Below, one piece after another: positions 16,746 through 58,643 of a DNA stretch of 64,000 nucleotides (positions are counted from its first letter, which is position 1; each line of letters starts with the position of its first letter). Origin of the DNA: a virus (Duplodnaviria; Caudoviricetes); IMG/VR virus record IMGVR_UViG_3300027983_002389. One strand, written 5' to 3'. Below the pieces are notes generated by a model. It searched no databases and was not told the DNA's origin. It was given only the letters and a program-made list of their open reading frames with translations. The position numbers were made by a program, and so were the translations under genes.

Positions 16746-16793
16746 ATTAAGAAATGTGCCTTCCATTAAGAAATGTGCCTTCCATTGGCACAT
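16746..16793 (+). repeat. Hairpin micro-element copy A, with internal 19-bp tandem duplication
   Basis: ATTAAGAAATGTGCCTTCC x2 then ATTGGCACAT; stem ATGTGCC/GGCACAT. Confidence 0.9.
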
Positions 16794-16809
16794 CCCATGA
16801 GCGATACCC

Positions 16810-17097
16810 ATGAGCGATACCCCTGAAAACGTCAAAGAAGTAGCCCTGTATGCTTGGGTTGGTGAGGATGAATTGGGTTCTGGCGTTGTCGGACTCAAAC
16901 AGGCTTGGACACGGGCGGGAGCCGTACCATTGGTTGCTGTGGACCACGCCAAAATGCTGAACGAAGTTATTCAGCAACAGTTGTAAGCACAAACGAACCA
17001 GTATGGTAAAACCATACGTCTTTGCAAATTCACATTTGTTGAAGAAATCCTTGCACTCGAACCTGAGAGTGTTGCACCCGAACCGGAGAAGAATTGA
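16810..17097 (+). pseudogene. Phage hypothetical gene with in-frame TAA at 16984
   Basis: MSDTPE...LYAWVGEDELGSG...QQQL*AQTNQYGKTIRLCKF...; 13-bp duplication over start. Confidence 0.7.
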
Positions 17098-17783
17098 TGT
17101 TTGGAGCATTAGGCAGCATACGGAAGGAAAATGTCCCACACGGAACCAAAGTGGATACATTGCGCACTCCGGGCATTGCCGAGCGTAGCAACGACGCTTT
17201 TGTTCTTCAGGGAAAAGATACCAGCAAGCTACATTTGATTGTTGATATGTCCCGCATTGGCGCTGGACTATTCAACGTCAAGATGGAATACACCTACTTC
17301 GCTCCGAGGTCGGGTAAAAACTACTTATTTGAATTGGTGTTGATGAAGTGGCCTGATGTACAAACTTTCTTGTGGGCTATCGCTTCATTCCCCATAGAAT
17401 ATCGACCTCAAGCTGAGGCTTTCGCAAAAGAGTGTGGGCTTCGTTTGGCAGATGGCGTTCCCACCATCTTTGATGGCAGTGGCGCACATCAGTTTCCATT
17501 GGAAGGCCCTACGGTCTATACTATGGAGAACATTAGTGGGCATCAAGTGTATGGAAACAGTGGTGAGAAGTTGAAGTTGAAGTTGAAGAAGGAAGAACAT
17601 GCCGCAATTGATGCCATCATTGGTGCCGACCGAGCCAAACTTCATGCTGAAATGAGGGGGCAAGGTTATACTGATGAGCAGATCAAGCGAATCCTGAGTC
17701 ATTGGGAGTCAGGAAATGAAGCATATGAGGAGGCTCCCGCCGCAGCCGGGGATGGGCAGCATCGTCACAAGAGTCTGAAATAA
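17094..17783 (+). CDS. Hypothetical protein
   Basis: 229 aa ORF. Confidence 0.7.
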   Translation: MMFGALGSIRKENVPHGTKVDTLRTPGIAERSNDAFVLQGKDTSKLHLIVDMSRIGAGLFNVKMEYTYFAPRSGKNYLFELVLMKWPDVQTFLWAIASFPIEYRPQAEAFAKECGLRLADGVPTIFDGSGAHQFPLEGPTVYTMENISGHQVYGNSGEKLKLKLKKEEHAAIDAIIGADRAKLHAEMRGQGYTDEQIKRILSHWESGNEAYEEAPAAAGDGQHRHKSLK

Positions 17784-17794
17784 GGAACACAGCT

Positions 17795-18007
17795 ATGTCC
17801 GTCGAGAAGTTTGCCAAAGCCTTTGGTGTTTATCATTGGGACACGTTCGATAATGAAACGATCCTGATTGGTGAATCCGATACGCTCGACGAGGCACGTC
17901 AATTCGTCCAAGAGAAATACAAGGGGCGACTCGGCTCTGATGGAGCAGATCGAGTCGATATTGTGGATCAACAGGGCGATATTGTGGATCACTTCTCAAC
18001 ACGCTGA
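17795..18007 (+). CDS. Hypothetical protein
   Basis: SD AAGGA. Confidence 0.65.
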   Translation: MSVEKFAKAFGVYHWDTFDNETILIGESDTLDEARQFVQEKYKGRLGSDGADRVDIVDQQGDIVDHFSTR

Positions 18008-18019
18008 AGGCGGTGTTAC

Positions 18020-18223
18020 ATGGTTGACGTTCGGGGATATTTTGCATCCAAAGAAAGAGCAACTAAGTTGCCGCAAGTTCAAGTGAACAAAGACGAATTT
18101 GTTCGCCGTCTTATAGAACGAGGCGAGGTTCCAGAGAAGGCTGAACAAATTGCTATGGTTGCCGAGACGTTAGGGAGCCATATCGAAATCAACAACGAAA
18201 TGGTTGGAATCATCAATGTCTGA
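18020..18223 (+). CDS. Hypothetical protein
   Basis: ORF in run. Confidence 0.6.
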   Translation: MVDVRGYFASKERATKLPQVQVNKDEFVRRLIERGEVPEKAEQIAMVAETLGSHIEINNEMVGIINV

Positions 18224-18653
18224 AAAGACTGAGTTTGAAAAAATTGGCGTTCATACTATTCGCCCATTCAAGTCGAATGGGCGATGGGTGTTTAAGCACA
18301 ACAATCAAACATACGATATGGCACCAGCCGGGATTATGGATTCCGTATTGAGTCCATTGGTCATTGGTGCCGACCGACTTATCGCCCTGGGTTGTCAGAT
18401 GAAAGGCATCCCAAATCCTGAAGCTGGTTTTAACTTGCTGTTTTCGGAAGAATATTTTCCAAATGCAGATGTTAAATTCAACTTCGTGGAAGTCAAGCAC
18501 AGTGGTTGGATTTATGCTGTCGAGGAATTGAACCTCAAGGGCTTGATGCCCGGCCAATCGGCTTGGATTTGTCCATACATGACGTTCTATTACTCTCAGC
18601 CGCCCAAGATTTTGTACTTGAAAGTGGAGTCCTGTGATGGAATTCCTGAGTGA
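18216..18653 (+). CDS. Hypothetical protein
   Basis: C-terminal WICP...YY..PP..LY motif. Confidence 0.65.
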   Translation: MSEKTEFEKIGVHTIRPFKSNGRWVFKHNNQTYDMAPAGIMDSVLSPLVIGADRLIALGCQMKGIPNPEAGFNLLFSEEYFPNADVKFNFVEVKHSGWIYAVEELNLKGLMPGQSAWICPYMTFYYSQPPKILYLKVESCDGIPE

Positions 18654-18960
18654 TGGTCAGCATCGGCATGGTGGCGAAAAGATGAATTGTTTCTTCTGCA
18701 CCACGCAGAAGAACAACTGTCAGTTGTTTCGATTGGGAGAAAATCCTTCTCATCCTCCCGAGTATGCAGCACTATATAACCACAGATTTGTCATCTGTCC
18801 TGAATGTCATGCAAGAGGATCGGAATTTCTTGCACAGCATTTATTGCACTGGATAAAGGTACAAGAATTCTTGACCGATCACGGTGTTGGACTCCCGGAA
18901 ATTGAACGACATAAGAAAACCGGGAAGCTGCCTATGTTCAACAAGAGGAAAAAAAGATGA
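18634..18960 (+). CDS. Zn-finger hypothetical protein
   Basis: CFFC...CPEC. Confidence 0.55.
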   Translation: MMEFLSDGQHRHGGEKMNCFFCTTQKNNCQLFRLGENPSHPPEYAALYNHRFVICPECHARGSEFLAQHLLHWIKVQEFLTDHGVGLPEIERHKKTGKLPMFNKRKKR

Positions 18961-19469
18961 AGTGTTTCGTTCACGTTGGGTTCGATCCTAAGCCTCACGA
19001 GGCTGACGACCCCGCTGAAGCAATAAGTTTAGCTGAAAGATATTTGCTTGCAGAAAGCAGGCGAGAGCCTGAAGAGGAACATCTACCTGTCAAATGGAGA
19101 CGGGATGATTTATATCCAGATAACTTCCTGGATTACACGAAAGACGAATTGGTTTCTCATTTGAGTCAGAAGGGTGAGGTAGTGTTGCAACTCGCCGAGT
19201 TTGACTTGGACGGCTTGCCAATTATGGGCGAAATCGTTAACATCTTTACTGCTTCTGAAGAAGAAAAGAACACTCAAGAAGCAGAAGAGGCGTTGGACGT
19301 AGTTTCTCCTGAAGGATCAATCAGATTCAAAAAAGCTGTGGCTTTTGGCCTTGCTCGACCAAAAAATACGCCGACTCTTTTGCCTGGCAGGAAAATAAAA
19401 AGGAACCCTGCGAAAAAGCGAACCATGAAGCCTGACGGAACTGACGGAAAAAAATCAAGCGACGACTAG
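18957..19469 (+). CDS. Hypothetical protein
   Basis: ATGA overlap. Confidence 0.65.
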   Translation: MKCFVHVGFDPKPHEADDPAEAISLAERYLLAESRREPEEEHLPVKWRRDDLYPDNFLDYTKDELVSHLSQKGEVVLQLAEFDLDGLPIMGEIVNIFTASEEEKNTQEAEEALDVVSPEGSIRFKKAVAFGLARPKNTPTLLPGRKIKRNPAKKRTMKPDGTDGKKSSDD

Positions 19470-19549
19470 GTGAGTAATGACTCAAGTGCTGCCTCTTGTC
19501 GCTAGACTTGAGGGAAAGCACAGTAATCCATCCACACAAGGAAAACGTC

Positions 19550-20026
19550 ATGGCTAGTGAAGACTATGAAATCTTCAAAGTCTTGAAGCAAGAACGAATT
19601 CGAGAAGGTGCTGACAGACGAGCATCAAATACTGATGACTTTGGTGCTGCCAGTCAATTGGCTGTCCAAGCTGGAATGACCCTCGTGCGACACTCAGAGG
19701 TTCATTATCAATTGCGAGGCCAAACTGGTTGGATGCTCAATATTTATCCAGGCAATCAAAGGCTATATCACGACCGCAACCGGCCCAAGCCGCCATTCTT
19801 GAAGGTCAAGCCTGACTGGATGCTCACTGATGTTGTTCATGCCGCTATTGCAGCATCGAATAATACAGATTCTTTTGCCGAAGAAATCGAAAAGAAAGTT
19901 GTGACCGACGAACAAATCCAAGTTCGTGCGTATTATTTGTGGCAAGCTGTTGGTTGTCCTTGCGGTGACGGCAGTGAATTCTGGTTTCAAGCACAGAAAG
20001 ATATGCGAGGCCAATTATGGACATAA
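19550..20026 (+). CDS. Protein with C-terminal DUF2934-like domain
   Basis: QIQVRAYYLWQAVGCPCGDGSEFWFQAQK. Confidence 0.7.
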   Translation: MASEDYEIFKVLKQERIREGADRRASNTDDFGAASQLAVQAGMTLVRHSEVHYQLRGQTGWMLNIYPGNQRLYHDRNRPKPPFLKVKPDWMLTDVVHAAIAASNNTDSFAEEIEKKVVTDEQIQVRAYYLWQAVGCPCGDGSEFWFQAQKDMRGQLWT

Positions 20027-20535
20027 TGTGTTTATCTTTGGACACGGATATGTCTGATGATGAAATCAAAGAATCCATACAGAATATGATCCCAATATGC
20101 ACCATAAAATCGCAAGGTTTCTGTTTGAGCATCAATGGATACGATGAAGATCATCGTGAGTTGTGGCAAATTCCAGAAGCTCTTGGATTCATGAGGCGGC
20201 TCTGTGATTTTGGTTTCTTGTCCGTACTCGAAACTTCGACTACTTGCCCTGATTTAATCAACAAGCAATACAAAGTGGACAATTTGCCCGGCTTTGGCGC
20301 ACTTGAAGTTTGGATGTGTGCCACAAATAGATTGGAAAAAGGCAAAAACGATATTGATCGAGAGACGATGAATAAATTTCATGAAGCCCTTGGCGTTTCC
20401 AATCGACGAGCCGAGGAAATAATGAAAGAACCACCGTATCAAACCGGGATACAAAAATTTGCAAGCCGAACGCAAGTACCAGACGCCCCAATTAAACACC
20501 ACGGCTACAATAAGGATCGTGGGAAACCCAGGTGA
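20017..20535 (+). CDS. Hypothetical protein
   Basis: GYDEDHRELWQIPE motif. Confidence 0.65.
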   Translation: MDIMCLSLDTDMSDDEIKESIQNMIPICTIKSQGFCLSINGYDEDHRELWQIPEALGFMRRLCDFGFLSVLETSTTCPDLINKQYKVDNLPGFGALEVWMCATNRLEKGKNDIDRETMNKFHEALGVSNRRAEEIMKEPPYQTGIQKFASRTQVPDAPIKHHGYNKDRGKPR

Positions 20536-20538
20536 TAT

Positions 20539-21221: not shown

Positions 21222-21223
21222 AT

Positions 21224-46528: not shown

Positions 46529-47330
46529 GCCCTTTGTCGAGGGACTGAATATCTCCGCACTGCTGTCTCCTGAAACGGAAGAAAAGACAGAAGCAAAGAA
46601 GAAAGTACGTCCAGAATGGCAATATGACTTTGAAAACGAAATCCTTGATGCCCAAGAAGGCTGGATTTACTCGAAAAGAAAAAACAATAGAAAAGGAAAT
46701 AAACTCCGCAAGTTCTACGAACGCCTGTATGGCGGTCGGGGTCGAGACGAAGGCATCACGTTCTGGAAACCAAAGATCAACGATTTGGCGTATTGTGAGG
46801 CCAAGCGATGGATGGCAGTTCAACACCATCACAAACAACATACCAAGATCATAGGTGCGTTCAAAGAAGTAACCGATAATGCACCATTCTGCTGCATTCG
46901 CAATACAGAAGAAGCTCCAGGTTTTGCTTGGATTGTTTTTCACAAGTCTGATAGACATGATCCCGGAGTCTCATGGGAATGGTGGGAACTCAGCTACGAA
47001 AAGAAAAACAAGCAACTAGAACGTCCCGATTGTAAACTCCGACAGGACATTGGTGACGCATGGTTCGCCTACGAAGAACGCTCTCAACAACTTCGAGAAC
47101 GAGCAGCACACTTCCAAAAGCTGTTCATGTTGGCACTCGAAAAGCGTTACCAAGACGAATTCTATCGGACTAACCGATATGGAAGTGTCAAAAGAAAACT
47201 CATCATCAATGGCCGGGAATATCTTATCGGCGCAGTTGATGGACGAACATTTGGCGTCATTGTCTACCCTGAAGAAACAACTGTCGAAATCGTTGAACCT
47301 GGACCAATTCCGAAGAAAGCCAAAGAATGA
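46482..47330 (+). CDS. Hypothetical protein
   Basis: 282 aa; ATGA overlap with channel gene. Confidence 0.7.
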   Translation: MDESARKNMTKPAKIKPFVEGLNISALLSPETEEKTEAKKKVRPEWQYDFENEILDAQEGWIYSKRKNNRKGNKLRKFYERLYGGRGRDEGITFWKPKINDLAYCEAKRWMAVQHHHKQHTKIIGAFKEVTDNAPFCCIRNTEEAPGFAWIVFHKSDRHDPGVSWEWWELSYEKKNKQLERPDCKLRQDIGDAWFAYEERSQQLRERAAHFQKLFMLALEKRYQDEFYRTNRYGSVKRKLIINGREYLIGAVDGRTFGVIVYPEETTVEIVEPGPIPKKAKE

Positions 47331-48079
47331 TCGCAAACTTTCTCAAAAAGGCCGATGGCTACCTGAAGTTCATTGTAATCTTAGGTACATTTATTTATTT
47401 GCTAGAGCTAACAACTGGAGCCAAAAATACAGTGGTTTCAAATCCTTTCTTTTTGTATGCAGAAAGGGTAATAGCAGTCATTTTCACCATCGAATATATC
47501 CTTCGTTGGCTTGACGATGCACATGACGGCTATAATTGGCACTATCCGCACTCACCATTGGGTATTGTTGATTTGATTTCCATATTGCCCTTCTGGTGTG
47601 GATTCTTTGTGCCAGTAAATTGGTTGCATTTCATTAGAACATTTCGAGTCTTCAGGCTTTTGAAATTCTTCCGATATTCTCGCAGCTTACAACTTGTGGC
47701 ACTTGGCTTCTATCGAGCAACACCAGCATTGAAACCATTGGTGTTCTCCCAATTCATTATTGGACTGTTCTGTACAGTAGCGATATTTGAAGTCGAATCA
47801 GAGGCACAACCCGATAAATTCAGCACTCTGTTCGATGCTGCATACTTCACGATGGTTACTGTCGCAACCGTTGGATACGGCGATTTAAGCCCCATCACGC
47901 CATCGGGGCGAATCATCGCCATGTTCACCTTCGTGACCGCACTGGCAGTGTTTGCAGGCATCCTGGGCGTCCTGGGATCGAGCTTCTTCAAAGTCATGGA
48001 AGAAGAGATCGACCCCAATATTGACCCTCTTAATGAATTTCACAAAGAAAAACAACGACAACTCGTTCGTTGGAAATAA
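47327..48079 (+). CDS. Voltage-gated potassium channel (6TM)
   Basis: S4 RTFRVFRLLKFFR; filter TVATVGYGD; FTIEY.LR, DLISILPF. Confidence 0.92.
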   Translation: MIANFLKKADGYLKFIVILGTFIYLLELTTGAKNTVVSNPFFLYAERVIAVIFTIEYILRWLDDAHDGYNWHYPHSPLGIVDLISILPFWCGFFVPVNWLHFIRTFRVFRLLKFFRYSRSLQLVALGFYRATPALKPLVFSQFIIGLFCTVAIFEVESEAQPDKFSTLFDAAYFTMVTVATVGYGDLSPITPSGRIIAMFTFVTALAVFAGILGVLGSSFFKVMEEEIDPNIDPLNEFHKEKQRQLVRWK

Positions 48080-48082
48080 TCA

Positions 48083-48370
48083 ATGAAAATTCACGAAAGA
48101 TATTGGTCGTACTCTGAACAGGTTGCACTGCCAGAAATCACAAAGAATCGCAGATTCCTTTGGTGGACGTGGACTGAAACGTATCGCTTCACAAAAGACA
48201 AATACAACTCCAAAGCCGCCCTCTTGGAAGAGGTCAACAAATTTATCGAAGAAAATGATATTGTTGACATCATTTCATTCAAAAATACTGCCAGGATGAT
48301 AACAATTCTTGATTATGACTATGAATACGAAGAACGACGTGGCGGCATTGAACTTGTTTATAAAAAGTAA
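48083..48370 (+). CDS. Hypothetical protein
   Basis: ORF in run. Confidence 0.55.
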   Translation: MKIHERYWSYSEQVALPEITKNRRFLWWTWTETYRFTKDKYNSKAALLEEVNKFIEENDIVDIISFKNTARMITILDYDYEYEERRGGIELVYKK

Positions 48371-48404
48371 CAACGTCCTTTGGGAAATTCGTAGAACCTT
48401 AGTC

Positions 48405-48410
48405 TAAATA
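48405..48410 (+). promoter_or_regulatory. Late-type promoter TAAATA
   Basis: tcTAAATAaaggcATG. Confidence 0.65.
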
Positions 48411-48415
48411 AAGGC

Positions 48416-50506
48416 ATGAGGTTCTACGAATTCCACCAAATTGTCAAATCAGCAAACCCGCCAGCACTCAAGCTGCAATGGGAATACAATGCTGATACGT
48501 TCCAATCCTGGTTTATGTCGGAAGTTACTAAAGAAATTGCCAAAGATTTGGAATCCTGGAAAGATGAAAATCCAAACGAACTCCCGTTCCAAGGACTCTT
48601 TCCCGCTGAAAATGATGAACCAATCACCCGAAGAGTCATTCCCTTCACCGCCGATCCAGTCGCAGTAAGTATTTTGGATAAAATCCAACATGCTGGACTC
48701 AATATCGACTTCAAAACCGGCACTGTAACCAATGGGCAACGTGCTACTCGATTGGGTAAATTAGTTCTAAACAAGAACTCGCCATTCTCAACAGAAGAAA
48801 AGACTTGGTGGAACCATAGCGGTGAACCAATCCCAGAACTTCAAAGAACTCAAAGCACTCACCAATATGCAATAGTTGTATCACGCAATCCTATTGATAT
48901 TGCCCGCATGTCTGACCATGATGGTTGGACTTCATGTCATGCACCAAGTCGTGAATACTTTCAATGTGCTATATCTGACGCTAAAGGCGGCGGGGCAATA
49001 GCATATGTCGCTAAAAAGGCTGATTTAGCTGGTATCGACTTGCAAGAACCAGAAATATTCTCAGATAAACGACGTGGAGTTAGTGGAGTAAACCCCATCT
49101 CCAGAGTGAGATTGCGTAAATTCGTCCACAAAGAAGATGGATATGATCTCGCAGTCCCAGAAGATCGTACTTATGGTAAAGAATTCCCCGGTCTAACCGA
49201 TAGCGTTAGAGATTGGGCGTTGCAGTCCCAACAAGTTGTCCTCAAAGGACAACGACCTAGCATGGATGAATTCAAACTCATGGGTGGAAGCTATCAAGAT
49301 ACTCAAGGAAGTGATTTATTCAATTACTTCTTCAATGATGATCTCGATTCCGGTGATGCCGAATATGGCGGTGACGGCGATGGACAAGGCATGTTTGCCC
49401 AATACGAGGAAGAAGTCGAAATAATTGAAAAAGAATTCAGAAATTCATTCACCATCTGCTCGTTCTATGCCTCTGTAGAAGAATCCGAGGGTGCGCCCTA
49501 TGTCTCCTACAGCGGCACTGTATACATCAAAATCCCCGAAGAATTGCTTTTGCCATTGCCAAAAGAAACAGATGTATGGGGTCCAAAGTCCAAAGGATGG
49601 CAGATCAGAAAAGAATTGGAAAAATGGGCCAAAGATAACGAAATCTATAACGTCAATGAAGTTGAATACGACGATGAAGGTCTGCGTATCGAAATTCATG
49701 ATGATAGCGGCACGAACCCAGATGATTTCAGAAGTTTCTGTGAAAATACACTCAAAGATATTGATGAAAAGAAAGATGAACTTCAAGCCAGCCTATATCA
49801 CAAGTTGGTAGAAATGGGATTGGCCACAGCAAATAAAGTCTCTCAGATCAACAATGATCTGGACAATGAGAACGCACATGCCTTCCAACACTTTGAATGG
49901 CAAGGTAAAAGCCCTGAAGTCTCAATATCCCTCAAAGAGCCAATGAGCCTGCCAGCACCACCACAAACTAACGCTGGCTTCCAACATGAATATTGGCAAG
50001 ATCAATTCAAACAGTCCGTCATGCAACAAATCAATGCTTGGGCCGATAGAGTTGTCACCATCCAGAAACAACAACCATCACTCTTTCCAGATATGGAGCA
50101 GGATCATAAGCGACCATTTGAACTCCATATTAAACCTGAGATCGAACTCAAACCGAAAGACTCATGGAAAAAGGGAGAACCCGGTCAACCATTGTTCATG
50201 TTTATGAAACTGAACTTCGAGACGTTCTCAAATGACGAGCATGTCGAAGATGCAATCAACTTTGCCAAGTTCCTGGATAAGAACTTCCCCAAATTTGAGA
50301 GCATGATCTATCAGATATACATGAAATGGATCAACAATTGGGGCAAACCACAGCCCTCAGCACAACCAGCCCCAATGCAACACGCCCCAAATCCGGCTCC
50401 GACACAACCAGAACAACCTCCGACAACCAATCCTGCACAACCAATTAGCGATTTGCCAAATGCAGCTAAAGGGGAGGAGAGAGTCACGTCCCGCACACAC
50501 GGATGA
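48416..50506 (+). CDS. Large late hypothetical protein, putative head-packaged
   Basis: MRFYEF...FQSWFMSE; SRNPIDIARMSD..WTSCH; Pro/Gln tail. Confidence 0.75.
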   Translation: MRFYEFHQIVKSANPPALKLQWEYNADTFQSWFMSEVTKEIAKDLESWKDENPNELPFQGLFPAENDEPITRRVIPFTADPVAVSILDKIQHAGLNIDFKTGTVTNGQRATRLGKLVLNKNSPFSTEEKTWWNHSGEPIPELQRTQSTHQYAIVVSRNPIDIARMSDHDGWTSCHAPSREYFQCAISDAKGGGAIAYVAKKADLAGIDLQEPEIFSDKRRGVSGVNPISRVRLRKFVHKEDGYDLAVPEDRTYGKEFPGLTDSVRDWALQSQQVVLKGQRPSMDEFKLMGGSYQDTQGSDLFNYFFNDDLDSGDAEYGGDGDGQGMFAQYEEEVEIIEKEFRNSFTICSFYASVEESEGAPYVSYSGTVYIKIPEELLLPLPKETDVWGPKSKGWQIRKELEKWAKDNEIYNVNEVEYDDEGLRIEIHDDSGTNPDDFRSFCENTLKDIDEKKDELQASLYHKLVEMGLATANKVSQINNDLDNENAHAFQHFEWQGKSPEVSISLKEPMSLPAPPQTNAGFQHEYWQDQFKQSVMQQINAWADRVVTIQKQQPSLFPDMEQDHKRPFELHIKPEIELKPKDSWKKGEPGQPLFMFMKLNFETFSNDEHVEDAINFAKFLDKNFPKFESMIYQIYMKWINNWGKPQPSAQPAPMQHAPNPAPTQPEQPPTTNPAQPISDLPNAAKGEERVTSRTHG

Positions 50507-50598
50507 AATCGTTGATTTAACAAGTTTTACTCCAAATATACAACAGTCTGTTCAAGAGACAAAACCTCAGACAAAATCTCAGACAAAGGAACTTCATC

Positions 50599-51315
50599 AT
50601 GAAAACATTTAAACAATTTTTGCAAGAGATGCCAATGAGCTTAAATTTTGCTGGCAATAATTGGAATGATTTAGAACAAAATGCGAAAGCGGGACAAGCA
50701 ACAGGTCGTTTCGACGCTTCTTCTACAAGAATGTTACATTCTGATAAAGCTAAAGCAAAAATCATAAGAAGATTTGAAGATGTTCCTTATAATTTTAATG
50801 TTTATTTTGTCAATAGTAAGCGAGGTTGTACAAGTGCTAAAATTGATAAATCACAAATGGAATTGTATTATCCGCAAATGGGCATAACTCCAAATGAAGC
50901 TCCGATCATTGATGGAAAAATAAATGTGTTTATTTGTAGTTGGGAAAACGATCCTCCAACAGCCTGGATGATTGCTCATAGATTTGGTCATGCTAATAAC
51001 GAATTAACTCAATCCTTATACAAAATAATGCACCAATATGGAAAAAACATACAAGGAATTAGAAGTGGATATCCAGAGTTTGACATAGTGTCACGATATG
51101 GAACTATGAAATCTGCAACAACTGGAAAACTAGGTGCCAATGACGAACCTCTTTACGAAATTATCGCACAATTTATTATGACTGGAAAAGTTACATTTAA
51201 AACCTCTCCAAATTCAACAATAGACTCACAAATAAAAAATATTGAATCTATTTGTAATATTACAATTGAAAACGTTATGAAAGATGCACGCCAATATGTT
51301 TATTTTTTATTCTAA
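50599..51315 (+). CDS. AT-rich hypothetical protein with capsid-targeting-like N-terminus
   Basis: MKTFKQFLQE; zincin-like AHRFGH. Confidence 0.7.
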   Translation: MKTFKQFLQEMPMSLNFAGNNWNDLEQNAKAGQATGRFDASSTRMLHSDKAKAKIIRRFEDVPYNFNVYFVNSKRGCTSAKIDKSQMELYYPQMGITPNEAPIIDGKINVFICSWENDPPTAWMIAHRFGHANNELTQSLYKIMHQYGKNIQGIRSGYPEFDIVSRYGTMKSATTGKLGANDEPLYEIIAQFIMTGKVTFKTSPNSTIDSQIKNIESICNITIENVMKDARQYVYFLF

Positions 51316-51501
51316 GGAAATAAGTGGCTATAAGAAGATCTAAGACAGAACCAACACCAGTCAAGTTGGAAGAAACGTTTGGAGAGCTTACCGTCCACCA
51401 ACGACTTGAAATATCTTGTCGTATCCACTTGACTCTCGCCAAGACAGCCAGTAAACTCAACCGAGATTCACCAAACCCCGTTTCTATGAAAGGAACAACC
51501 A

Positions 51502-51819: not shown

Positions 51820-51839
51820 TCTTGAATTGAAGATGGTTG

Positions 51840-52034: not shown

Positions 52035-53390
52035 CTACTTTACGCCCCGATTCACAAGATTGGATACCACCACAGATACACGCTCACTTGTTGCATCAGG
52101 CTCAAAATGCACCGATGTCCCATAATGGTTCCCGCCACCTACCATATAGACAATCTTGACATATGTGCTGTTCGACTTGACCTCAATAACCGGCAATGAT
52201 CCTACCTTGGCACCTAACTTCCTGCCCGGACCCTCACCCGTTACAAAATCCTTCCCAATTGCCGATGACCATCCAGGTGATGAATCAGCCTGCAACAATG
52301 AACGATACGCCGGAATCGTGTCAGCACCACCAGTAACCATTAACTCAAGTAATGCCGCAAACTTTCGTGGCTTGTTCGTGTAAGAACCCTCTGCCGCTGA
52401 CTTCATGTTGTCCAATAAATAAGCACGCTTATCTGCCGCTTCATATAAAGGATTAGTCAACATGTCCCTCATGTTCTTCAATACCTTGCGACTCGCACCC
52501 AATGCACTTAATGCCCTCACAGAACTCAAATGACGAACCTGTACCTGAGTCTCAGTCACCGCCTTCAAACTAAACCCAACGTCCCCACGCATCCCAGGTA
52601 AATACTTCTCGCATCCAATACGTAAATCCGCCGTGTCTGACTTCAAACGAGCCGATTGACCGTCCGTACCTCCAGTAAACTCAATCGAATCCACCACACA
52701 CTGACGAACTAATGCCATCGCCTTGCTGTGTATCAAATTCCCCATGCCAGTCTTGCCAGTCGCATGTTGCTTAATGAACTCCACAACCAATCGACCTAAA
52801 TTCGACCCCACCTTGCTACTAATCACACCACCTAATCGTGCTTGCTCCGTCATCGCCCATGCTAAATCCTTCTGACCAACAACCTTTAACCTGAACGTCG
52901 TTACCAAAAAGGCAAATACCTCAACCTCAAACAATAATCCCATCTCCTTCCCAACCAACTGAGGAATCGAACGTGTCCCAGCATTCATACCCTTCGCAAA
53001 TGTCGTAGTGTCCTTCGCATTCCATCCCATTCCCATTCCATTAGCCGCAACAATAGCAGCTTTCCCCTTCCAACCCTTTTCTGTAACCTCGCCCAATATA
53101 GCCCCAGAATGCACCACAGATGACGCTAATGCCATAGGAGTCTCCACATTAGCCCTGACCGGGGAAACAGCCATAGAAGGCGTCACAGGAGCTACAGACG
53201 CCATAGAACTGATGGATACAGAAACATATCCCTCAGATGGACGAATAGATGAAGAAATACGACCCATAAGCTGCTGAACCCATGCAGCAACCTCAGTCAT
53301 CCCGCCCTCAGAGGCCCCAAGCCATTCCTTGAAATGGTTAAGAAATGTGCCTTCCATTGGCACCGTTGGCACCACCTTGAAACTATTCAT
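52035..53390 (-). CDS. Late protein, possible PD-(D/E)xK-like nuclease; N-terminus interrupted by micro-element
   Basis: GLLFE...TADLRIG...GFSLK; MNSFK[16 aa]EWLGASE. Confidence 0.55.
   Translation of the reverse strand: MNSFKVVPTVPMEGTFLNHFKEWLGASEGGMTEVAAWVQQLMGRISSSIRPSEGYVSVSISSMASVAPVTPSMAVSPVRANVETPMALASSVVHSGAILGEVTEKGWKGKAAIVAANGMGMGWNAKDTTTFAKGMNAGTRSIPQLVGKEMGLLFEVEVFAFLVTTFRLKVVGQKDLAWAMTEQARLGGVISSKVGSNLGRLVVEFIKQHATGKTGMGNLIHSKAMALVRQCVVDSIEFTGGTDGQSARLKSDTADLRIGCEKYLPGMRGDVGFSLKAVTETQVQVRHLSSVRALSALGASRKVLKNMRDMLTNPLYEAADKRAYLLDNMKSAAEGSYTNKPRKFAALLELMVTGGADTIPAYRSLLQADSSPGWSSAIGKDFVTGEGPGRKLGAKVGSLPVIEVKSNSTYVKIVYMVGGGNHYGTSVHFEPDATSERVSVVVSNLVNRGVK
53327..53382 (+). mobile_element. 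40-bp hairpin micro-element (53335-53374) with 8-bp target-site duplication
   Basis: CCTTGAAA-[TGGTTAAGAAATGTGCCTTCCATTGGCACCGTTGGCACCA]-CCTTGAAA; ends TGGT/ACCA. Confidence 0.75.
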
Positions 53391-53393
53391 ACT

Positions 53394-55190
53394 TTATCTT
53401 CCCTTATTGAAAATTCGCTGCTTTGTGGCATTATGCCTCCTTTGCATTTGTGCGTGTTGATCCTGCTTAGCATAATCCTCTCTACTTCTAGGGCCACGGT
53501 CTTCGTTGCCCATATCTCTCGCAACTTGACGACGTGCTTGATCCTGTTTGTCAAAATCAGCATCCGAAACAGCATTCCTGTCAGACATCTGCTTGTCGTT
53601 GTATCCATCATTGTTGCCATTCAGATAATCATTGGGATCAGCAGTATCATTATTTGGATATAACCTACCTTTAGGAAGTGCGCCGCTAGAATCCACTTCC
53701 GGTGACTCCATCCCAGGAACAGGTTCCCCAATGTGTGAACCCCAGAACCTATCACCAGAACCATAGGTCGGCTTGTCCACCCTTGGTTGTGACACATTTT
53801 TACCCCACGCTGGTTGTGTGTCGCCATTCGTGTTCATCACATCATTTTTACCTTGATTTACTTTATTCCAAGGCTCTATATCCTTCATTAACTTATCATT
53901 AGCACGAACCTCCGCAGGAGTCATTTCACGACCATTCATGAACTTTCCAGTAGGAGTAGCTTCAGGAGTAGCTTCAGGAGTAGTATCGGTAGGAACAGGA
54001 CTAGAATTGTCAGGAGTTGTTATCCCCAAATCCGACTGAAGTGATTGCAACTCAGGCTGAGGAATCACCCCAACACTTGCAATACTATCAAATGCAGACT
54101 GCATAGAATTCACACCAGCACCTACACCAGCACCTATCGCCGCTCCTAAAGCAACCATAAATGCCGCCTTGCCTATCGCTAACTTGTTCTCCGATGCAAA
54201 TTTTCCAATAGATGACATTGATGACTTAATCATGTTGCCACCCTTCACCGTCTTGCCCGCTGCCTTGCCAGCCATATTCCCAATAGCACCGCCAACCTTG
54301 TCAGAGACTCCATTGTCCCACCATTGCTTGCCCTGCTTTGCCTTACTCGTTGCGTAATCCTCAGCACCGCCTATCTTCTTGCCTGCCCAATTGCCAGCCT
54401 GTGATACCCTGTCTCCAAACCAACCCTCATGTAAATCACGTTCGTTAGCATAACTCGCAAAACTTAAATTCCATGAATTCTGCATACTAGATGGTGTCCA
54501 AAGTTTAGCATTCGGATTCCTCTTCTGCTGTCCAGGTAACCAAAGATTAGATTGTTGTGCAGCTTGAGGTTGTGCAGCTTGAGGTTGTACAGCTTGAGGT
54601 TGTACAGCTTGAGGTTGTACAGCTTGAGGTTGTGCAGCTTGAGGTTGTGCAGCTTGAGGTTGTGCAGCTTGAGGTTGTGCAGCTTGAGGTTGTGCAGCTT
54701 GAGGTTGTGCAGCTTGAGGTTGTGCAGCCGCCTGCTTTCCATCCCAACCCATCTTGTTAGCTGCCTTGTCAAAGCCAGCACTAGCTGCCTTATTGAGAGG
54801 CTTCCTAACAAAATATAAAAGTGCAGCCATAGGCATCGCAGCAGGTCCACCTACCACCCCAGATGCCATCAATGCAGTTGCTAACATCGGATCAATGCCT
54901 AACTTCTGAGAAAATTGACCAGCAGCCTGACGTGACTTGTTGATAGCCTCCATAGCCTTAGTTGCATATTGAGCATACTGACCGTCGCCAGTTGTGTCAT
55001 TCTTCGATTGATCGTAATTCTTCTTGAATCCCTGACTCATAGAATCAAAGAAACCCTCATCAATCAAATACTCCTCAAACGTCATCATGCGTAAATTTTC
55101 ACGAACACAATTAGGCACCGTCCGAGAACCCTTGCTTTTTGTCCCAATCATCTCGTAACCCTTCCAACAAGGATTTTTACTGTTTTTCAT
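53394..55190 (-). CDS. Low-complexity late protein, probable internal or ejected virion protein
   Basis: PCWKGY...VPNCV motif; MMTFEEYLIDE; QPQA(A/V) x11; Gly/Ala hydrophobic segments. Confidence 0.7.
   Translation of the reverse strand: MKNSKNPCWKGYEMIGTKSKGSRTVPNCVRENLRMMTFEEYLIDEGFFDSMSQGFKKNYDQSKNDTTGDGQYAQYATKAMEAINKSRQAAGQFSQKLGIDPMLATALMASGVVGGPAAMPMAALLYFVRKPLNKAASAGFDKAANKMGWDGKQAAAQPQAAQPQAAQPQAAQPQAAQPQAAQPQAAQPQAVQPQAVQPQAVQPQAAQPQAAQQSNLWLPGQQKRNPNAKLWTPSSMQNSWNLSFASYANERDLHEGWFGDRVSQAGNWAGKKIGGAEDYATSKAKQGKQWWDNGVSDKVGGAIGNMAGKAAGKTVKGGNMIKSSMSSIGKFASENKLAIGKAAFMVALGAAIGAGVGAGVNSMQSAFDSIASVGVIPQPELQSLQSDLGITTPDNSSPVPTDTTPEATPEATPTGKFMNGREMTPAEVRANDKLMKDIEPWNKVNQGKNDVMNTNGDTQPAWGKNVSQPRVDKPTYGSGDRFWGSHIGEPVPGMESPEVDSSGALPKGRLYPNNDTADPNDYLNGNNDGYNDKQMSDRNAVSDADFDKQDQARRQVARDMGNEDRGPRSREDYAKQDQHAQMQRRHNATKQRIFNKGR
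54555..54729 (-). repeat. 15-bp coding tandem repeat x11
   Basis: TTGT(G/A)CAGCTTGAGG units. Confidence 0.95.
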
Positions 55191-55199
55191 ATTGTCTCC

Positions 55200-55271
55200 T
55201 TAAAAATCAAATAAACTACCCTGGTTGGCAGCAATACGACGCTTACGAGCCTTTTTGCCACCCTGAGCCAT
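55200..55271 (-). pseudogene. Orphan diverged copy of the 3' end of the glycosylase-like gene
   Basis: MAQGGKKARKRRIAANQGSLFDF* versus MAQGGKKARKRRASALQPTLFDN*. Confidence 0.75.
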
Positions 55272-55328
55272 ACCACCATGAATCAAAAAAGGGTTCTGCC
55301 GCAATTTCAAAACAAGTAAACCATTGAC

Positions 55329-55357
55329 TTTACAACAGATAAAATGAATGGTATAAC
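55329..55357 (+). promoter_or_regulatory. sigma70-like promoter, antisense to late operon
   Basis: TTTACA-N17-TATAAC. Confidence 0.55.
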
Positions 55358-55586
55358 TCAAATTCATTGATGACATGGAGAACAAGGTTTTCGTTTCAGG
55401 TAATTCTTCCTAACTGTAAAAAAGCGATATCATTGAAGCTAGGGGACAGGTTGTACGTTGACATAAGACTTAATTAAGCCGACCCGTCATCGTTCTTCGT
55501 ACTCGCTCGTATATGAGAGGATGGAAGTTAATCAACTGATATGAGGCTCCCCATTTTTTTGACTTTTCTTGCCGTTTACTGATTCC

Positions 55587-57026
55587 TTAATTGTCAAATA
55601 ATGTAGGCTGTAATGCTGATGCCCGACGCTTACGAGCCTTTTTACCACCCTGAGCCATACGCTGCTGAATGATCGAACGTATATGGTCTGGATCAACTGC
55701 ACCACCAGCACCCAATGCAGGCGATAAGTAATGCAATGCAGTAGGCTGACTGCCCAAATTCTGATCCAATGACCTACCGTCCGGCCCCTTGCGAAATTTA
55801 ACCGCACGAGCAGCTAATTCCCCAGGATCAGTTACCATTGATGCAGGCGTCTGAATCCCGCCACGAGAATATAAGTTGTAGAAATGCTTCAACGCATCGT
55901 CCGGGTCCATCAAAGAATGTGTCGCCGAAGCACCCATCCCCAAACGACCACCAGCCAATGGCACCATCACGCCCCCACGATCCTTTCCAATACCTAATTT
56001 CGGTATCTTAATCCCCTTCATCGAATCATACTCGCCAGCATTCTTGTCCAATGCCCCACCCTGCATGTCGTAATACCCCTTGCCATGATGAGTTACCATC
56101 ACATACATGGTTTCTACGAAATCAACCCATACATCCCATAATTGCTTCGTCCCAATCCCACGAGATGATAATTTGTTCAATGTGTTCACATAGCGCTCCG
56201 CTCCACCCTTCTTGCGACCCCATGACTTCTCGTCAAAATCACCAGCCTTGTCCATGTCCGGGAATACCTTGGTGTATATGTCAATGTTGTGAGTGTCAAT
56301 GCAACCAGCACGACCCCATAACAATTGAGCAATAAATCCAGCCTTGACCGGCTGAACCCCCTTAATCATCGACAAACGCTTAATCAACACCGTGTCGTCC
56401 CCACTACCAGCTATTCCATTCAATTCATGAAATAAATTGTCCTTGTTAGACCATATGTCCGCAATCGTGTCCAACTTGAACCCGCCAATCGTATGAGCCA
56501 AAGCATGATACTTGTCCCCAAAGGAATCCACAGCATGTTCAATCTCCTGCTTCGTCACACGCTCAGGAAATTGATGCTTCAATATCGCCATCAGCATGTA
56601 ATAGTTGTCCCAATGCTTCGCAAATGGTACGTTCGCTGATAATGGACTAAACATCAATACCTGAGCAAAATTGGCAGGCGATACCTTGGCAAATGCCTGA
56701 ATAGCTCCAATGTGTGAGGCATATCCAGATAATGGCGTCACTTCACACGATCCACCCTCGTCATCAATTAACTTGTCTACCTTGGCTTCAGGATCAGGAC
56801 CAGCATCCTCGTCACCAAATAAATTGGGATCACCCTTCTTCTTGGTGAAATCCATCCCAGCTAACTGATGACGATTCACTCGCCCCTCATTTAACCAAAA
56901 TGATACCTCAGTCATCAAAGATGAAAGAATGTATCCCCCAAATGCCTCGTCGTCAGACATCCACTCTCTGAAATTAGTCGTCATATAATTGATCCCCATT
57001 GAATTATTCGTTCTCGTTGCCTTCAC
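55587..57026 (-). CDS. HhH-GPD (Ogg2-like) DNA glycosylase/AP-lyase-like protein; probable start 56984
   Basis: IKGVQPVKAGF...AGCIDTHN matches the HhH Lys/Asp layout; MTTNFREWMSDDE; C-terminal QPTLF. Confidence 0.6.
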   Translation of the reverse strand: MKATRTNNSMGINYMTTNFREWMSDDEAFGGYILSSLMTEVSFWLNEGRVNRHQLAGMDFTKKKGDPNLFGDEDAGPDPEAKVDKLIDDEGGSCEVTPLSGYASHIGAIQAFAKVSPANFAQVLMFSPLSANVPFAKHWDNYYMLMAILKHQFPERVTKQEIEHAVDSFGDKYHALAHTIGGFKLDTIADIWSNKDNLFHELNGIAGSGDDTVLIKRLSMIKGVQPVKAGFIAQLLWGRAGCIDTHNIDIYTKVFPDMDKAGDFDEKSWGRKKGGAERYVNTLNKLSSRGIGTKQLWDVWVDFVETMYVMVTHHGKGYYDMQGGALDKNAGEYDSMKGIKIPKLGIGKDRGGVMVPLAGGRLGMGASATHSLMDPDDALKHFYNLYSRGGIQTPASMVTDPGELAARAVKFRKGPDGRSLDQNLGSQPTALHYLSPALGAGGAVDPDHIRSIIQQRMAQGGKKARKRRASALQPTLFDN

Positions 57027-57390
57027 TATTAGGCAAAATAATGGCGTGCGCTCGACCTACGCCGTCAATGCCAGCAATAAGCTCCCTGTCAAAAGCAGCC
57101 TTCATCTGCGGATAACGAAATGATGCCGCCTTCTCCCTCGCCTTCGCAAAGATGCCAGTCAATTGCTGATGAATCCCTTTCAAATTCTGAGTCGCCTTGA
57201 TAATCTCAGGATCAGCAGGAAGAGATGCAGTTGCCTTGGGTTGACTGTAAACTACAGTTGGATCATTCCTGCCATCAGCAGTTGACCTCGTGCCCTTCGG
57301 AACATATGTCTGTGTCTGATTTGGGTCTAAACCCATTGCCGGTGCCGCTACAGCCTCCAGCCATGCAGTGAATGATCGTATTTTTCCCAT
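57004..57390 (-). CDS. Putative head-packaged hypothetical protein
   Basis: MGKIRSFTAWLEA; TATATA at 57395-57400, 4 nt upstream. Confidence 0.7.
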   Translation of the reverse strand: MGKIRSFTAWLEAVAAPAMGLDPNQTQTYVPKGTRSTADGRNDPTVVYSQPKATASLPADPEIIKATQNLKGIHQQLTGIFAKAREKAASFRYPQMKAAFDRELIAGIDGVGRAHAIILPNSEGNENE

Positions 57391-57432
57391 ACGCTATATA
57401 GAGAAATGACAGTTTAATTGCGGAGAAGTTAT

Positions 57433-57663
57433 TTACTTAGTCTGTTGGAGTACCTGCTGGCCCCTGTGAGCAATGCGATGGTCACAAACTGACGCTGATA
57501 CATAACGCCCTCCTGCCAGGCAGTGGTAGCAGAGGGGGTGTTGATCACGAAGCGAGGCCCAACGCTTCGGGTCCATCTTCCACTTGGTCGTATAATTGGG
57601 GGGGTGACTTCTTCTTGCATACACAGTCAGCAAAGAGGCATATTGAGCAGGCTTTTTTTTCAT
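57433..57663 (-). pseudogene. Truncated HK97 gp74-type HNH endonuclease
   Basis: TAAATA-cagc-ATG; HPLCYHCLAGGR..SASVCDHRIAHRG, then cut by the repeat. Confidence 0.7.
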
Positions 57664-57686
57664 GCTGTATTTACGGTTGACCAACG

Positions 57687-57714
57687 AAAAAACCCCGGTT
57701 GATAAACCGGGGTT
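57687..57714 (-). terminator. Intrinsic terminator
   Basis: AACCCCGGTT/AACCGGGGTT with A-tract on + strand. Confidence 0.75.
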
Positions 57715-57790
57715 AGGATGGGGTGATTGTCTGTACACGTTCAGGATGGGCGGGCGGAGAAGTTATTTACTTAGTCTGTTGGAGTAGCTA

Positions 57791-57817
57791 TGCCAATGGA
57801 AGGCACATTTCTTAACC
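57791..57817 (-). repeat. Hairpin micro-element copy C; partial copy follows at 57823-57841
   Basis: TGCCAATGGAAGGCACATTTCTTAACC. Confidence 0.9.
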
Positions 57818-57878
57818 GTCATTGGTGCCAATGGTATAACCCTCGTACGTTTGCCCGTTGCACAGGGTGAGTGTACCG

Positions 57879-58643
57879 TCAGACAAGTGCCAATGGAAGG
57901 CACATTTCTTTTTCCGGCCAGTCATTGTCATACATTCTTTGCACAGCTATTTCAAACATGTTTTTGTCAATTTCAATTCCAATATAACCTCTATTAAGGT
58001 TCTTTGCCGCCAAACAAGTCGTGCCTGATCCCATCGTGTTGTCCAAAATGCAATCGCCTTCATTGGAATAGGTTTTTACCAAATATTCAAGCAAAGCCAA
58101 AGGCTTTTGTGTGCTGTGAACACCTTTGTTGGAATTATCCCGTGGATAACGCAACAAATTCTTGGGATGGGAGTGAGTATAATTCTTGTATTTAACCGGC
58201 AATTCAAACGATCCAACAGAGTTGATTGTCTCACTGGCACAAGTTGGAAGTTTGTGCCTATAAGGCTTGTCGAGCGGAATCATTTGTGCATTGTATTTAG
58301 CCTTGTCGTAAAATACGCATATCTCTTCAATACATCGCAAAGGTTGATGGGCAGTATTCAAAAAACCCGTACCTTTTTCCTTCTCCCAATACCAGCAATA
58401 TTTGAACATTGCAAAATTGCTCGCAATCAGCTTGGAAGTAAAAGGCTGCGAGGCAAATAACACAATTGGACATCCAGGCTTCGCTAACCGTTTGTATTCC
58501 GACCACAAACGATCCAATGGCAACTCGCAATCCCACTTGGCCTGAGTGATCCCATAGGGTAAGTCGGCCAAAATGCAGTCTATGGACGCAGCCTCAAGCC
58601 CCGCCATCATTTCAAAACAGTCGCCAAATAGAAGTTTTCCCAT
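57879..58643 (-). CDS. DNA N6-adenine/N4-cytosine methyltransferase (beta class)
   Basis: GDC, DLPYG, HSTQKP, LDNTMGSGTT, IGIE. Confidence 0.92.
   Translation of the reverse strand: MGKLLFGDCFEMMAGLEAASIDCILADLPYGITQAKWDCELPLDRLWSEYKRLAKPGCPIVLFASQPFTSKLIASNFAMFKYCWYWEKEKGTGFLNTAHQPLRCIEEICVFYDKAKYNAQMIPLDKPYRHKLPTCASETINSVGSFELPVKYKNYTHSHPKNLLRYPRDNSNKGVHSTQKPLALLEYLVKTYSNEGDCILDNTMGSGTTCLAAKNLNRGYIGIEIDKNMFEIAVQRMYDNDWPEKEMCLPLALV
57887..57910 (-). repeat. Hairpin micro-element copy D, inside methyltransferase 3' end
   Basis: GTGCCAATGGAAGGCACATTTCTT. Confidence 0.9.

Follow-up and report, generated by a model that had tools for sequence, protein, structure and literature searches.

Cas12i-type repeat handles probably occur as solitary units in a jumbo-phage genome

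The window, which is the whole 64-kb stretch of freshwater jumbo-phage DNA analysed here, contains four exact copies of the 23-mer AAGAAATGTGCCTTCCATTGGCA, located at 16768-16790 (+), 53340-53362 (+), 57791-57813 (-), and 57888-57910 (-). Aside from these, a 19-nt tandem partial copy lies at 16749-16767 and a partial motif CCATTGGCAC at 57825-57834. An exact scan thus reproduced the four core copies and the partial copy described in the earlier note, and the 23-mer gave 0 matches over 100 shuffles. Scanning the window with a covariance model revealed no copies beyond those known, and the model counts four copies in the window and three in the syntenic relative G002 (340 kb). The 23 nt are identical across the four window copies, though their contexts are non-homologous. 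The copy boundaries vary, giving units of 24, 29, 36, and 65 nt, and the flanking duplications are inconsistent among copies (8, 4, 4, or none). Nine of the ten copies with readable context, counted over the window and its relatives, are in the sense of local transcription. Several have a start codon 13-33 nt downstream in gene orientation, and others lie behind a tRNA-operon promoter. The units are referred to as SRU A to SRU D (Table 1).

Table 1. Features of the window at and around the motif copies.
Feature	Position	Strand	Description
ParB-like gene start remnant	16719-16736	+	18 nt, ATGAAATATCTTCCCGCT; from comparison with L046 and flanks
SRU A	16737-16791	+	Full 36-nt Cas12i-type repeat, GTTGCAACGATT + 24-nt handle; covariance model 46.6 bits
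13-nt tandem duplication	16794-16819	+	CCCATGAGCGATA twice; spans start of downstream gene, directly 3′ of SRU A
Host gene of SRU B (P0001)	52035-53390	-	Conserved 451-aa jumbo-phage protein, no assigned function
SRU B	53327-53382	+	40-nt insert + two CCTTGAAA copies; covariance model 48.6 bits
Rho-independent terminator	57687-57714	-	About 75 nt downstream of SRU C
SRU C	57790-57825	-	36-nt repeat unit, variant 5′ part CCAATGACGGTT, last base T; 39.9 bits
Degenerate repeat R2	57825-57863	-	Ends kept (GTGCAACG...CCATTGGCAC); middle diverged, hairpin lost
Spacer-like segment S1	57864-57886	-	23 nt, between SRU D and R2
DNA methyltransferase gene	57879-58643	-	phrog_67, 5e-65; 3′ end overlaps SRU D
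SRU D	57887-57910	-	24-nt handle; codes for the final 10 codons and stop region of the methyltransferase

SRU A is intergenic and runs in the same direction as the flanking genes, with the next ATG 18 nt past its end. It carries an internal 19-nt tandem duplication, and its 5′ part GTTGCAACGA is that of the repeat of a Cas12i array in the relative L035. At the same site, L046 has a whole ParB-like gene and a second gene (about 860 nt), and G002 is empty of the unit, having only 13 nt there. SRU A stands in place of this two-gene cassette.

SRU B lies inside a gene. Its 40-nt insert (53335-53374) is flanked by CCTTGAAA at 53327-53334 and 53375-53382, and the insert ends form a 4-bp inverted repeat (TGGT...ACCA) that is seen in this unit only. 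The unit is antisense to the host gene and in frame, occupying codons 6-21. The insert interrupts the N-terminal motif of the 451-aa protein, MxxFKEWLGxSE, which the duplication then rebuilds. All 21 homologues start with MxxF[KR]EWLGxSE and are devoid of the 16-aa segment, which bears out the 48-nt in-frame insertion that the earlier note had proposed. The insertion is found letter for letter in the Logan assemblies of SRR5208770 and SRR5468154, and is also exact in the 2022 estuary run X4 from an unrelated study. Hence, it is neither an adapter nor an assembly artefact, and the 53.3-kb segment is a derived insertion with an 8-nt flanking duplication. Read from 53328, SRU B is a 36-nt repeat-like unit followed by CGTTGGCACCA; the insert together with its left ‘TSD’ forms a 36-nt repeat, the 5′ part of which agrees with GTTGCAACGATT at 8/12 positions. 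A donor search for the 40-nt insert with the junction CATTGGCACCGTTGGCAC was negative, matching unrelated coding sequence only. A Cas12i staggered cut as origin of the 8-nt duplication was rejected: it would require cleavage of the non-target strand 13-15 nt, and of the target strand 24 nt, past the PAM (PMC8190297), and no TTN lies at the needed distance on either strand. So was retro-insertion of a processed crRNA, as the insert begins 6 nt 5′ of A(-23), where processing takes place.

SRU C and SRU D belong to a degenerate mini-array, D-S1-R2-C, at 57790-57910. A CRISPR array has at least three regularly spaced intact repeats with unique spacers; here only this series is found, with R2 degenerate. 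The terminator closes the transcription unit of the methyltransferase and the mini-array. Both copies are at the edge of a 4.9-kb island missing from G002, and SRU C has 94.6% identity over 37 nt with the SRU of L001. In a soil strain 95-99% identical to the window, 8 nt replace 57791-57942 (joint 57790>57943) and the methyltransferase tail differs. The analysis also reproduced every scar noted earlier, namely the 19- and 13-nt tandem duplications, a direct repeat of 31-33 nt, and a copy overlapping the tail of the methyltransferase gene. A protospacer search for S1, the flank ‘guides’, and the spacers of L035, L052, and L054 returned self matches only, with one exception, the known 31-nt direct repeat at 57422-57452, before which there is no TTN.

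By its sequence and architecture, the repeated 23-24-mer is shown to be the 3′-terminal mature-crRNA handle of a type V-I (Cas12i) CRISPR repeat. The Cas12i crRNA has a 23-nt repeat handle cut before A(-23), in which A-23, G-22, and A-21 are critical (PMC7567891), while the bases from A(-23) to U(-18) stay single-stranded and the stem is closed by G(-17):C(-1) (PMC8190297). The window motif, AGAAAT + GTGCC-TTCCATT-GGCAC, agrees base for base with the published handle, having six unpaired bases from A-G-A, a 5-bp stem, and a 7-nt loop, with the stem-loop ending at the last base of the repeat. The stem pairing is kept in 100% of cells, with a compensatory C:G to U:A change. L035 encodes a Cas12i2 homologue (13386-16568; PDB 6LTP, E=1.4e-204), which adjoins an array of 36-nt repeats GTTGCAACGACTGAGAATAGTGTCTT[T/C]CATTGACAC, and has a single-repeat unit upstream of its cas12i operon. 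A second Cas12i, with 65% identity, is encoded in L054, where an array of the repeat GTCGAAAGACCAAAGAAATGTGCCTACCATTGGCAC comes after it. Both contigs are syntenic with the window. A spaced array beside cas12i is thus present in the syntenic relatives L035, L052, and L054, and absent in the window itself. Among the repeats, the Cas12i-binding handle is conserved and the 5′ 12 nt are variable. No array with the exact TTCCATT variant was found for this phage, of whose roughly 460-kb genome 64 kb were read.

The window copies are most likely solitary repeat units (SRUs), a new instance of a known phage feature and not a miniature transposon. Copies A and B are single and away from arrays and cas genes. 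No Cas12i was found by tblastn in the window or in the 340 kb of G002, and no Cas domains among the 35 window ORFs scanned. The same ORFs have no transposase, HUH, or reverse transcriptase domains, in line with the earlier note. The relatives’ Cas12i cassettes sit at the window equivalents of 48.06 kb and 52.0 kb, distant from the 16.7- and 53.3-kb sites, and the window is without them. The 696-aa ORF at 48416-50506, which occupies the position of L054 cas12i, was dropped as a candidate, since comparison with Cas12i, PDB chains, Pfam, and PHROGs gave no match.

Presence and absence of copies between relatives is seen in both directions. Site 220348 of G002 has a copy and is empty in the window. 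The L001 copy stands in place of an ion-channel gene and shares 28 exact nt with the window, and the L001 flanks are 76-80% identical to G002. The metagenome contig L047, whose flanks match G002, has a solitary repeat equal to the L054 array repeat (36/36); its insert is 29 nt plus the 36-nt repeat, which makes one array period, and is flanked by TCTA. The wider search for the 23-mer, suggested earlier, was productive in part, giving copies in relatives and extra copies with other flanks in four metagenomes, and 0 matches in exact scans of the metagenome and prokaryote genome contig collections. A relaxed pattern had 0 matches in genome contigs (185,579 prokaryote genomes) and hit 11 loci in metagenome contigs, all solitary with no array. 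Among the matches, the group of L039, L041, L043, and L049 lies in another structured-RNA setting, where Rfam gave nothing, and may resemble the motif without being related to it. Four more viral 17-mer matches (L002-L005) are partly due to chance, L003 and L004 being in coding DNA. With megablast, neither region had a match among 50,697 phage records. A literature text search for published Cas12i repeat strings was equally negative, and no public RNA runs are listed with the region.

We then compared the window copies with known systems. Conserved hairpins at cassette borders, as found here, are reportedly also present in T4-type phages, where the PeSL motifs, said to have been described by Arbiol et al. 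in 2010, are short hairpins bordering variable gene cassettes. As mobile regulatory cassettes, the PeSLs are proposed to mediate shuffling by recombination; they reportedly carry an early promoter and are not known to have a link to CRISPR. The window units gave no promoter when searched. The viral SRUs and Racrs (Faure et al., 2019; Camara-Wilpert et al., 2023, PMC10651486) are likewise single, mostly intergenic viral repeats away from cas, and the window copies, like them, appear to keep the sequence and hairpin recognised by the cognate Cas protein. Different from the SRUs and Racrs, the type here is V-I, the matching arrays are in sister jumbo phages and not in a known host, each genome has more than one copy, and two of the window copies reach into coding ends, one in antisense orientation. 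A Racr is a small RNA that is expressed, binds the Cas protein, and blocks interference, a role for which the window copies would be candidates. The huge-phage Cas12i loci (Al-Shayeb et al., 2020, PMC7162821; PMC7567891, PMC8190297) have the same repeat architecture, and this phage clade also has cas12i and compact arrays without Cas1/Cas2; in contrast, the window has neither cas12i nor a regular array, only lone or degenerate repeats. The phage crlRNAs (bioRxiv 10.1101/2024.10.29.618823) are likewise a single repeat beside ordinary sequence, a potential short guide, with which the L035 unit may be compared. No partial match was found between the flank ‘guides’ and any promoter.

Taken jointly, the data somewhat favour array-derived SRUs that were copied by recombination and kept as Cas12i-binding RNAs. 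The units would originate from Cas12i arrays, and short homologies would allow them to be copied through DNA recombination or template switching, sometimes taking a whole array period and often with loss of the neighbouring gene cassette; no transposase would be involved in moving them. Signs of such copying are the one-period insert of L047 and SRU B, which together with its left ‘TSD’ is readable as a repeat. The sense copies (A, C, D, and all those seen in relatives) would be transcribed, and a Cas12i would bind or cleave the RNA, which would explain the exact 23 nt amid diverging flanks. If this Cas12i belongs to a rival phage or host, the copies would be Racr-like decoys; alternatively, the phage may have its own Cas12i outside the window, and the copies would be leader or regulatory handles. 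Copy B counts against this reading, since its antisense orientation bars it from serving as a handle in sense RNA; it probably arose as a side product of this copying and is tolerated in a coding leader. Further counter-points are the negative searches for a TTCCATT-variant array and a cas12i gene of this phage, for a donor, and for spacer targets, as well as the exact 8-nt flanking duplication, a feature that staggered-cut integration leaves more typically than recombination does.

The copies might instead be functionless relics of Cas12i-array cassettes whose loss or rearrangement took place at recombination hot spots, a reading that we consider rather unlikely. Most copies lie at indel or cassette boundaries, as at the site A cassette, the L001 ion-channel gene, and the C/D island; the cassettes of the relatives are missing from the window; R2 is visibly decayed; and copy B is antisense inside a gene. 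Such debris would hardly remain identical over 23 nt in four copies, or match over 28 exact nt a phage with only about 78% identical flanks. Moreover, it is exactly the Cas12i-binding handle that is conserved while the 5′ 12 nt vary, transcription sense prevails, and sites A and B are remote from known cassette positions. It is very improbable, though conceivable by analogy with the TnpB/omega-RNA retention of IS200/605 elements, that the handle acts as a self-propagating, crRNA-based homing drive, the flank becoming a Cas12i guide once the handle has landed next to conserved sequence. In mixed infection, rival genomes lacking the insert would be cut by Cas12i and would acquire the handle on being repaired with the insert-bearing genome as template. 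TTN would stand directly before the flank at 2-3 empty sites (G002 220348, CCGTTG/TAAGG; L047 site, GTTC/TCTAGGG). These hints are weak, because the PAM-like TT beside the units comes from the repeat itself and site B does not fit.

The earlier note had proposed a dispersed mobile micro-element with TSDs, either REP/MITE-like and moved by an HUH or DDE enzyme, or a fixed template copied into breaks during repair. The 8-nt duplication at 53.3 kb and the presence/absence pattern stand, but uniform TSDs do not. We regard an ultra-small MITE/REP-like element moved in trans by a phage or host transposase as highly unlikely, even with one clean insertion bounded by inverted ends and further copies with other flanks in the same metagenomes. 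The sequence is the 3′ part of a repeat known in Cas12i arrays, and several copies replace deleted cassettes instead of being plainly inserted. There are neither defined ends nor uniform TSDs, with the 4-bp TIR in one copy and units of 24-65 nt; copies are few (3-5 per 64-340 kb) and missing from the prokaryote genomes searched, and transposition enzymes from the ORFs scanned. The second option, the template, comes close to what the junctions suggest. Just as doubtful is a cis element unrelated to CRISPR, i.e. a phage promoter, terminator, or operator hairpin merely resembling the repeat. The gene-oriented copies before start codons and the terminator-like score of the reverse strand of two copies would suit it, but the same 36-nt unit occurs in spaced arrays beside cas12i of syntenic relatives, a promoter class would have more than three copies in 340 kb, a search for a -35/-10 partner gave none, and the crRNA-sense stem is only 5 bp with no T-tract after it. 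A tRNA anticodon-arm or T-arm mimic, a sigma-54 promoter, and an N4-type hairpin promoter were dropped on sequence inspection.

What looked like the smallest transposon thereby obtains a concrete and testable identity, lone Cas12i handles in a phage with close relatives carrying Cas12i. Strain-level gain and loss, together with the in-frame insertion in a conserved protein, provide rare junction-level data on the spread of solitary repeats, and copy B indicates that a Cas12i handle translated in reverse is tolerated in a protein’s N-terminal leader. If the copies are decoys, they would constitute an RNA anti-CRISPR against a phage-borne type V-I system, that is, a phage-against-phage counter-defence. 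If they serve the phage’s own Cas12i, they would extend Cas12i to action on messenger-RNA leaders.

The window copies of the hairpin element are, judged by sequence, solitary type V-I CRISPR repeat units (SRUs). The earlier note had observed recurrent copies of the 23-mer AAGAAATGTGCCTTCCATTGGCA; four exact copies and a partial one are present, shuffled sequence gave 0 matches in 100 shuffles, and a covariance model revealed no further copies in the 64 kb. Its account of the sequences at three sites was borne out when the sites were read. An array of the window phage itself would be predicted to have the repeat GTTGCAACGATTAAGAAATGTGCCTTCCATTGGCAC. We scanned the 10-kb neighbourhoods of homologues. 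On the 602-kb contig L035, the homologous gene is followed ~0.8 kb downstream by a spaced array with 36-nt repeats of the form GTTGCAACGACTGAGAATAGTGTCTT[T/C]CATTGACAC and spacers of 35-39 nt; farther on, the array decays to truncated repeats of 22-24 nt with spacers of 16-18 nt. The 1061-aa ORF beside this array matches Cas12i2 crystal structures (E=1.4e-204). A second Cas12i, 65% identical, is encoded on contig L054 and is followed by an array with the repeat GTCGAAAGACCAAAGAAATGTGCCTACCATTGGCAC; the repeats of a third, on contig L052, are GTGTC-TTCCATT-GACAC. Cas12i crRNAs retain a 23-nt repeat-derived hairpin handle, their precursor being cleaved between U(-24) and A(-23), counted back from the repeat-spacer junction, and A-23, G-22, and A-21 are critical (PMC7567891). 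In this handle, the bases from A(-23) to U(-18) stay unpaired, and G(-17):C(-1) is the closing pair of the stem (PMC8190297). The window motif, AGAAAT followed by GTGCC-TTCCATT-GGCAC, fits the published handle exactly. Stem pairing holds in 100% of cells across 15 distinct repeats, with a compensatory change from C:G to U:A. Huge phages are known to encode Cas12i and CRISPR loci without Cas1 and Cas2 (PMC7162821).

Repeat copies and associated features in the window and in related contigs
Feature	Position (strand)	Description
Copy A, exact 23-mer	16768 (+)	
Tandem partial copy, 19 nt	16749	overlaps copy A
Copy B, exact 23-mer	53340 (+)	
Copies C and D, exact 23-mer	57791 (-), 57888 (-)	
Copies in contig G002, n = 3	88850, 99037, 220348	intergenic, in gene orientation; 13-29 nt before ATG; one after tRNA
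Split gene behind copy A	16810-17188	58-aa ORF and 61-aa ORF; one longer ORF in relatives
Ion-channel gene	47327-48079	
Segment missing from G002	48058-51408	95-aa, 696-aa, and 238-aa ORFs
Gene of 451-aa protein	52035-53390 (-)	N-terminus MNSFK-VVPTVPMEGTFLNHFK-EWLGASE
40-nt piece	53335-53374	bracketed by two CCTTGAAA copies
Four proteins with similar N-terminal motif	52035-57026 and 48416-50506	MNSFKEWLGASE; MMTFEEYLIDEG at Met35 of called ORF; MTTNFREWMSDDE at Met15; MRFYEFHQ
Island, 4.9 kb	57407-62308	DNA methyltransferase (-); 769-aa ResIII/DEAD helicase-like ORF and 347-aa ORF (+)
Exact 31-nt direct repeats	57422-57452, 57756-57786	bracket terminator and small HNH-like remnant ORF
Tandem 19-nt repeats, CAGCTATCTCCACAAGCTA	62280-62400 and beyond; G002 263515-263600	at divergent intergenic region
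Truncated 22-24-nt repeats	L035:12100-12800 (-); L054:5820-6087 (+)	spacers only 16-18 nt
Type I cas genes	L037:2651-8798	JGI 3300032275; Cas3-like, Cas_GSU0053, Cas_GSU0054
Conserved ~130-nt element	L039, L041, L043, L049 (two copies, 890 and 2931)	GTGCC-TTTCATT-GGCAC, then second hairpin, then terminator

Megablast gave no match between the window and known phages. Contigs of 220-670 kb encode 23 relatives of the 451-aa protein, and the 203-265 kb region of G002, a 340-kb IMG/VR contig, is collinear with the window at ~80% nucleotide identity. Hence, the window belongs to the genome of a huge (jumbo) phage from freshwater. Window DNA is present in public metagenome runs from freshwater, estuary, soil, and glacier sources, and no RNA run carrying the region was found among public runs. 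Both L054 and L035 share synteny with the window, and their Cas12i cassettes lie at the equivalents of window 48.06 kb, after the ion-channel gene, and 52.0 kb. No Cas12i was found by tblastn in the window or in G002, and when 35 ORFs were compared with Pfam and PHROGs, no domain of the Cas, transposase, HUH, or reverse transcriptase kinds was found. The place of the L054 cas12i and array is held in the window by the segment that G002 lacks. The three ORFs of this segment had no family, PDB, or PHROG match, and the 696-aa ORF, located at the cas12i position, proved unrelated to Cas12i by comparison. On contig L037, from another relative, type I cas genes lie ~1 kb from a homologue of the 451-aa protein, and therefore the hot spot takes different CRISPR types in different phages. 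The truncated repeats on L035 and L054 are exactly the mature handle, and normal units (36-nt repeat and 35-39-nt spacer) are present in the same two arrays; the short spacers suggest binding-only guides or unusual array-building. The conserved ~130-nt element has no Rfam match, and its second hairpin shows compensatory changes (GGTGCC..GGCACG vs GGTTCC..GGAACA). The element may encode an unrelated small RNA, or else be a gene for a Cas12i-handle RNA.

We then inspected the individual sites. Copy A, a full 36-nt repeat (GTTGCAACGATT + AAGAAATGTGCCTTCCATTGGCAC), is intergenic and co-directional with its neighbour genes, the next ATG being 18 nt past its end. The split gene behind it may be a frameshifted pseudogene, and a 13-nt duplication creates an extra out-of-frame ATG at 16797. 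Copies D and C, together with a decayed repeat and a spacer-like piece of 23 nt between them, make up a degenerate mini-array that starts within the last codons of the DNA methyltransferase gene and extends to a strong terminator. Copy B is antisense, within a coding leader. The claim that the 53.3-kb segment was inserted holds, as the 16 residues are missing from all 21 aligned homologues, which start with MxxF[KR]EWLGxSE. The inserted allele was recovered in two other Logan assemblies, and unaltered in a 2022 estuary run from an unrelated study (X4, record 10); this recurrence excludes an adapter or assembly artefact, which the earlier note had also considered. The similar motif of the four proteins resembles the T4 capsid-targeting/prohead-protease leader (MKTYQEFIAE), and the four may be packaged internal proteins. 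If so, this would account for the tolerance of a 16-aa insert in the leader.

Relatives of the window differ in repeat content. At site A, G002 has two genes 13 nt apart and contig L046 a two-gene cassette of ~860 nt, while the window keeps the first 18 nt of an L046-type cassette followed by the repeat. On the reverse strand of L046, the cassette has a decayed repeat-like stretch (TTTGAAAATAACAATGTGACCTTCCTTAG) at its end, immediately before the orthologue of window gene 16810; therefore, the site-A unit may be older than the cassette loss in the window lineage. The G002 copy at 220348 distinguishes G002 from the window by 25 nt, with TAAG on both flanks, and a copy of this type was seen again in other metagenome contigs. 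Contig L001 has 28 exact nt in common and matches copy C at 35/37 positions; in the flanks it is 76-80% identical to G002, and it has the repeat in place of an ion-channel gene of G002. The insert of contig L047, flanked by TCTA and directly behind a tRNA-operon promoter, consists of 29 nt and a complete repeat that equals the one in the L054 array; its total of 65 nt is one array period. A soil strain 95-99% identical to the window (X5) lacks 57791-57942, namely copies C and D and all between, having 8 other nt there. The cassette bracketed by the two 31-nt direct repeats is missing from this strain too, with the repeat single and the joint at 57435>57768. The first bases of the 31-nt repeat, AGCTACTCCAACAG, are related to the 19-nt tandem repeats, which may be iterons or regulator sites. 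The island, flanked by divergent gene blocks, is missing from the syntenic G002. Four runs contain contigs with the same ~30 nt in other flanking sequence, and hence there are more copies outside the window.

The element had been read earlier as a micro-transposon. Three features argue against transposition: the flanking repeats are non-uniform (8, 4, 4, or none), units come in different sizes (24, 29, 36, and 65 nt), and several of the events were replacements. A reading as solitary type V-I repeat units has largely taken the place of the micro-transposon. Read from 53328, copy B and its left "duplication" form a 36-nt unit, the first 12 nt of which match the 5' part of the repeat at 8/12 positions. 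Thus, the target CTTGAAAC itself resembles the repeat start. We infer that one (mini-)array period would have been copied into the copy B site by template switching or short-patch recombination at the target homology. As donor of the 53.3-kb insert, an array of 48-nt period containing CGTTGGCACCAC is predicted; a donor search for the 40-nt insert found none. A Cas12i staggered cut as origin of the copy B duplication was rejected, as there is no TTN at a suitable distance, and so was retro-insertion of a processed crRNA, as the insert starts 6 nt before A(-23).

As to function, we favour that the copies would act as RNA that engages Cas12i, because 23 nt, precisely the Cas12i-binding part, are exact across unrelated contexts and genomes with ~20% flank divergence, lineage-specific variants match contemporary Cas12i arrays, and 9/10 copies by our count are co-oriented with local transcription. 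Neutral debris is a serious rival. Protospacer searches found no spacer targets. The putative RNA could be a decoy against the Cas12i of a rival or host, as described for viral SRUs or RNA anti-CRISPRs (Racrs; PMC10651486), or it could serve as handle to a Cas12i of the phage itself, which would be encoded outside the window. SRUs are already known as a kind; those described here have unusually clear insertion and deletion junctions at strain level.
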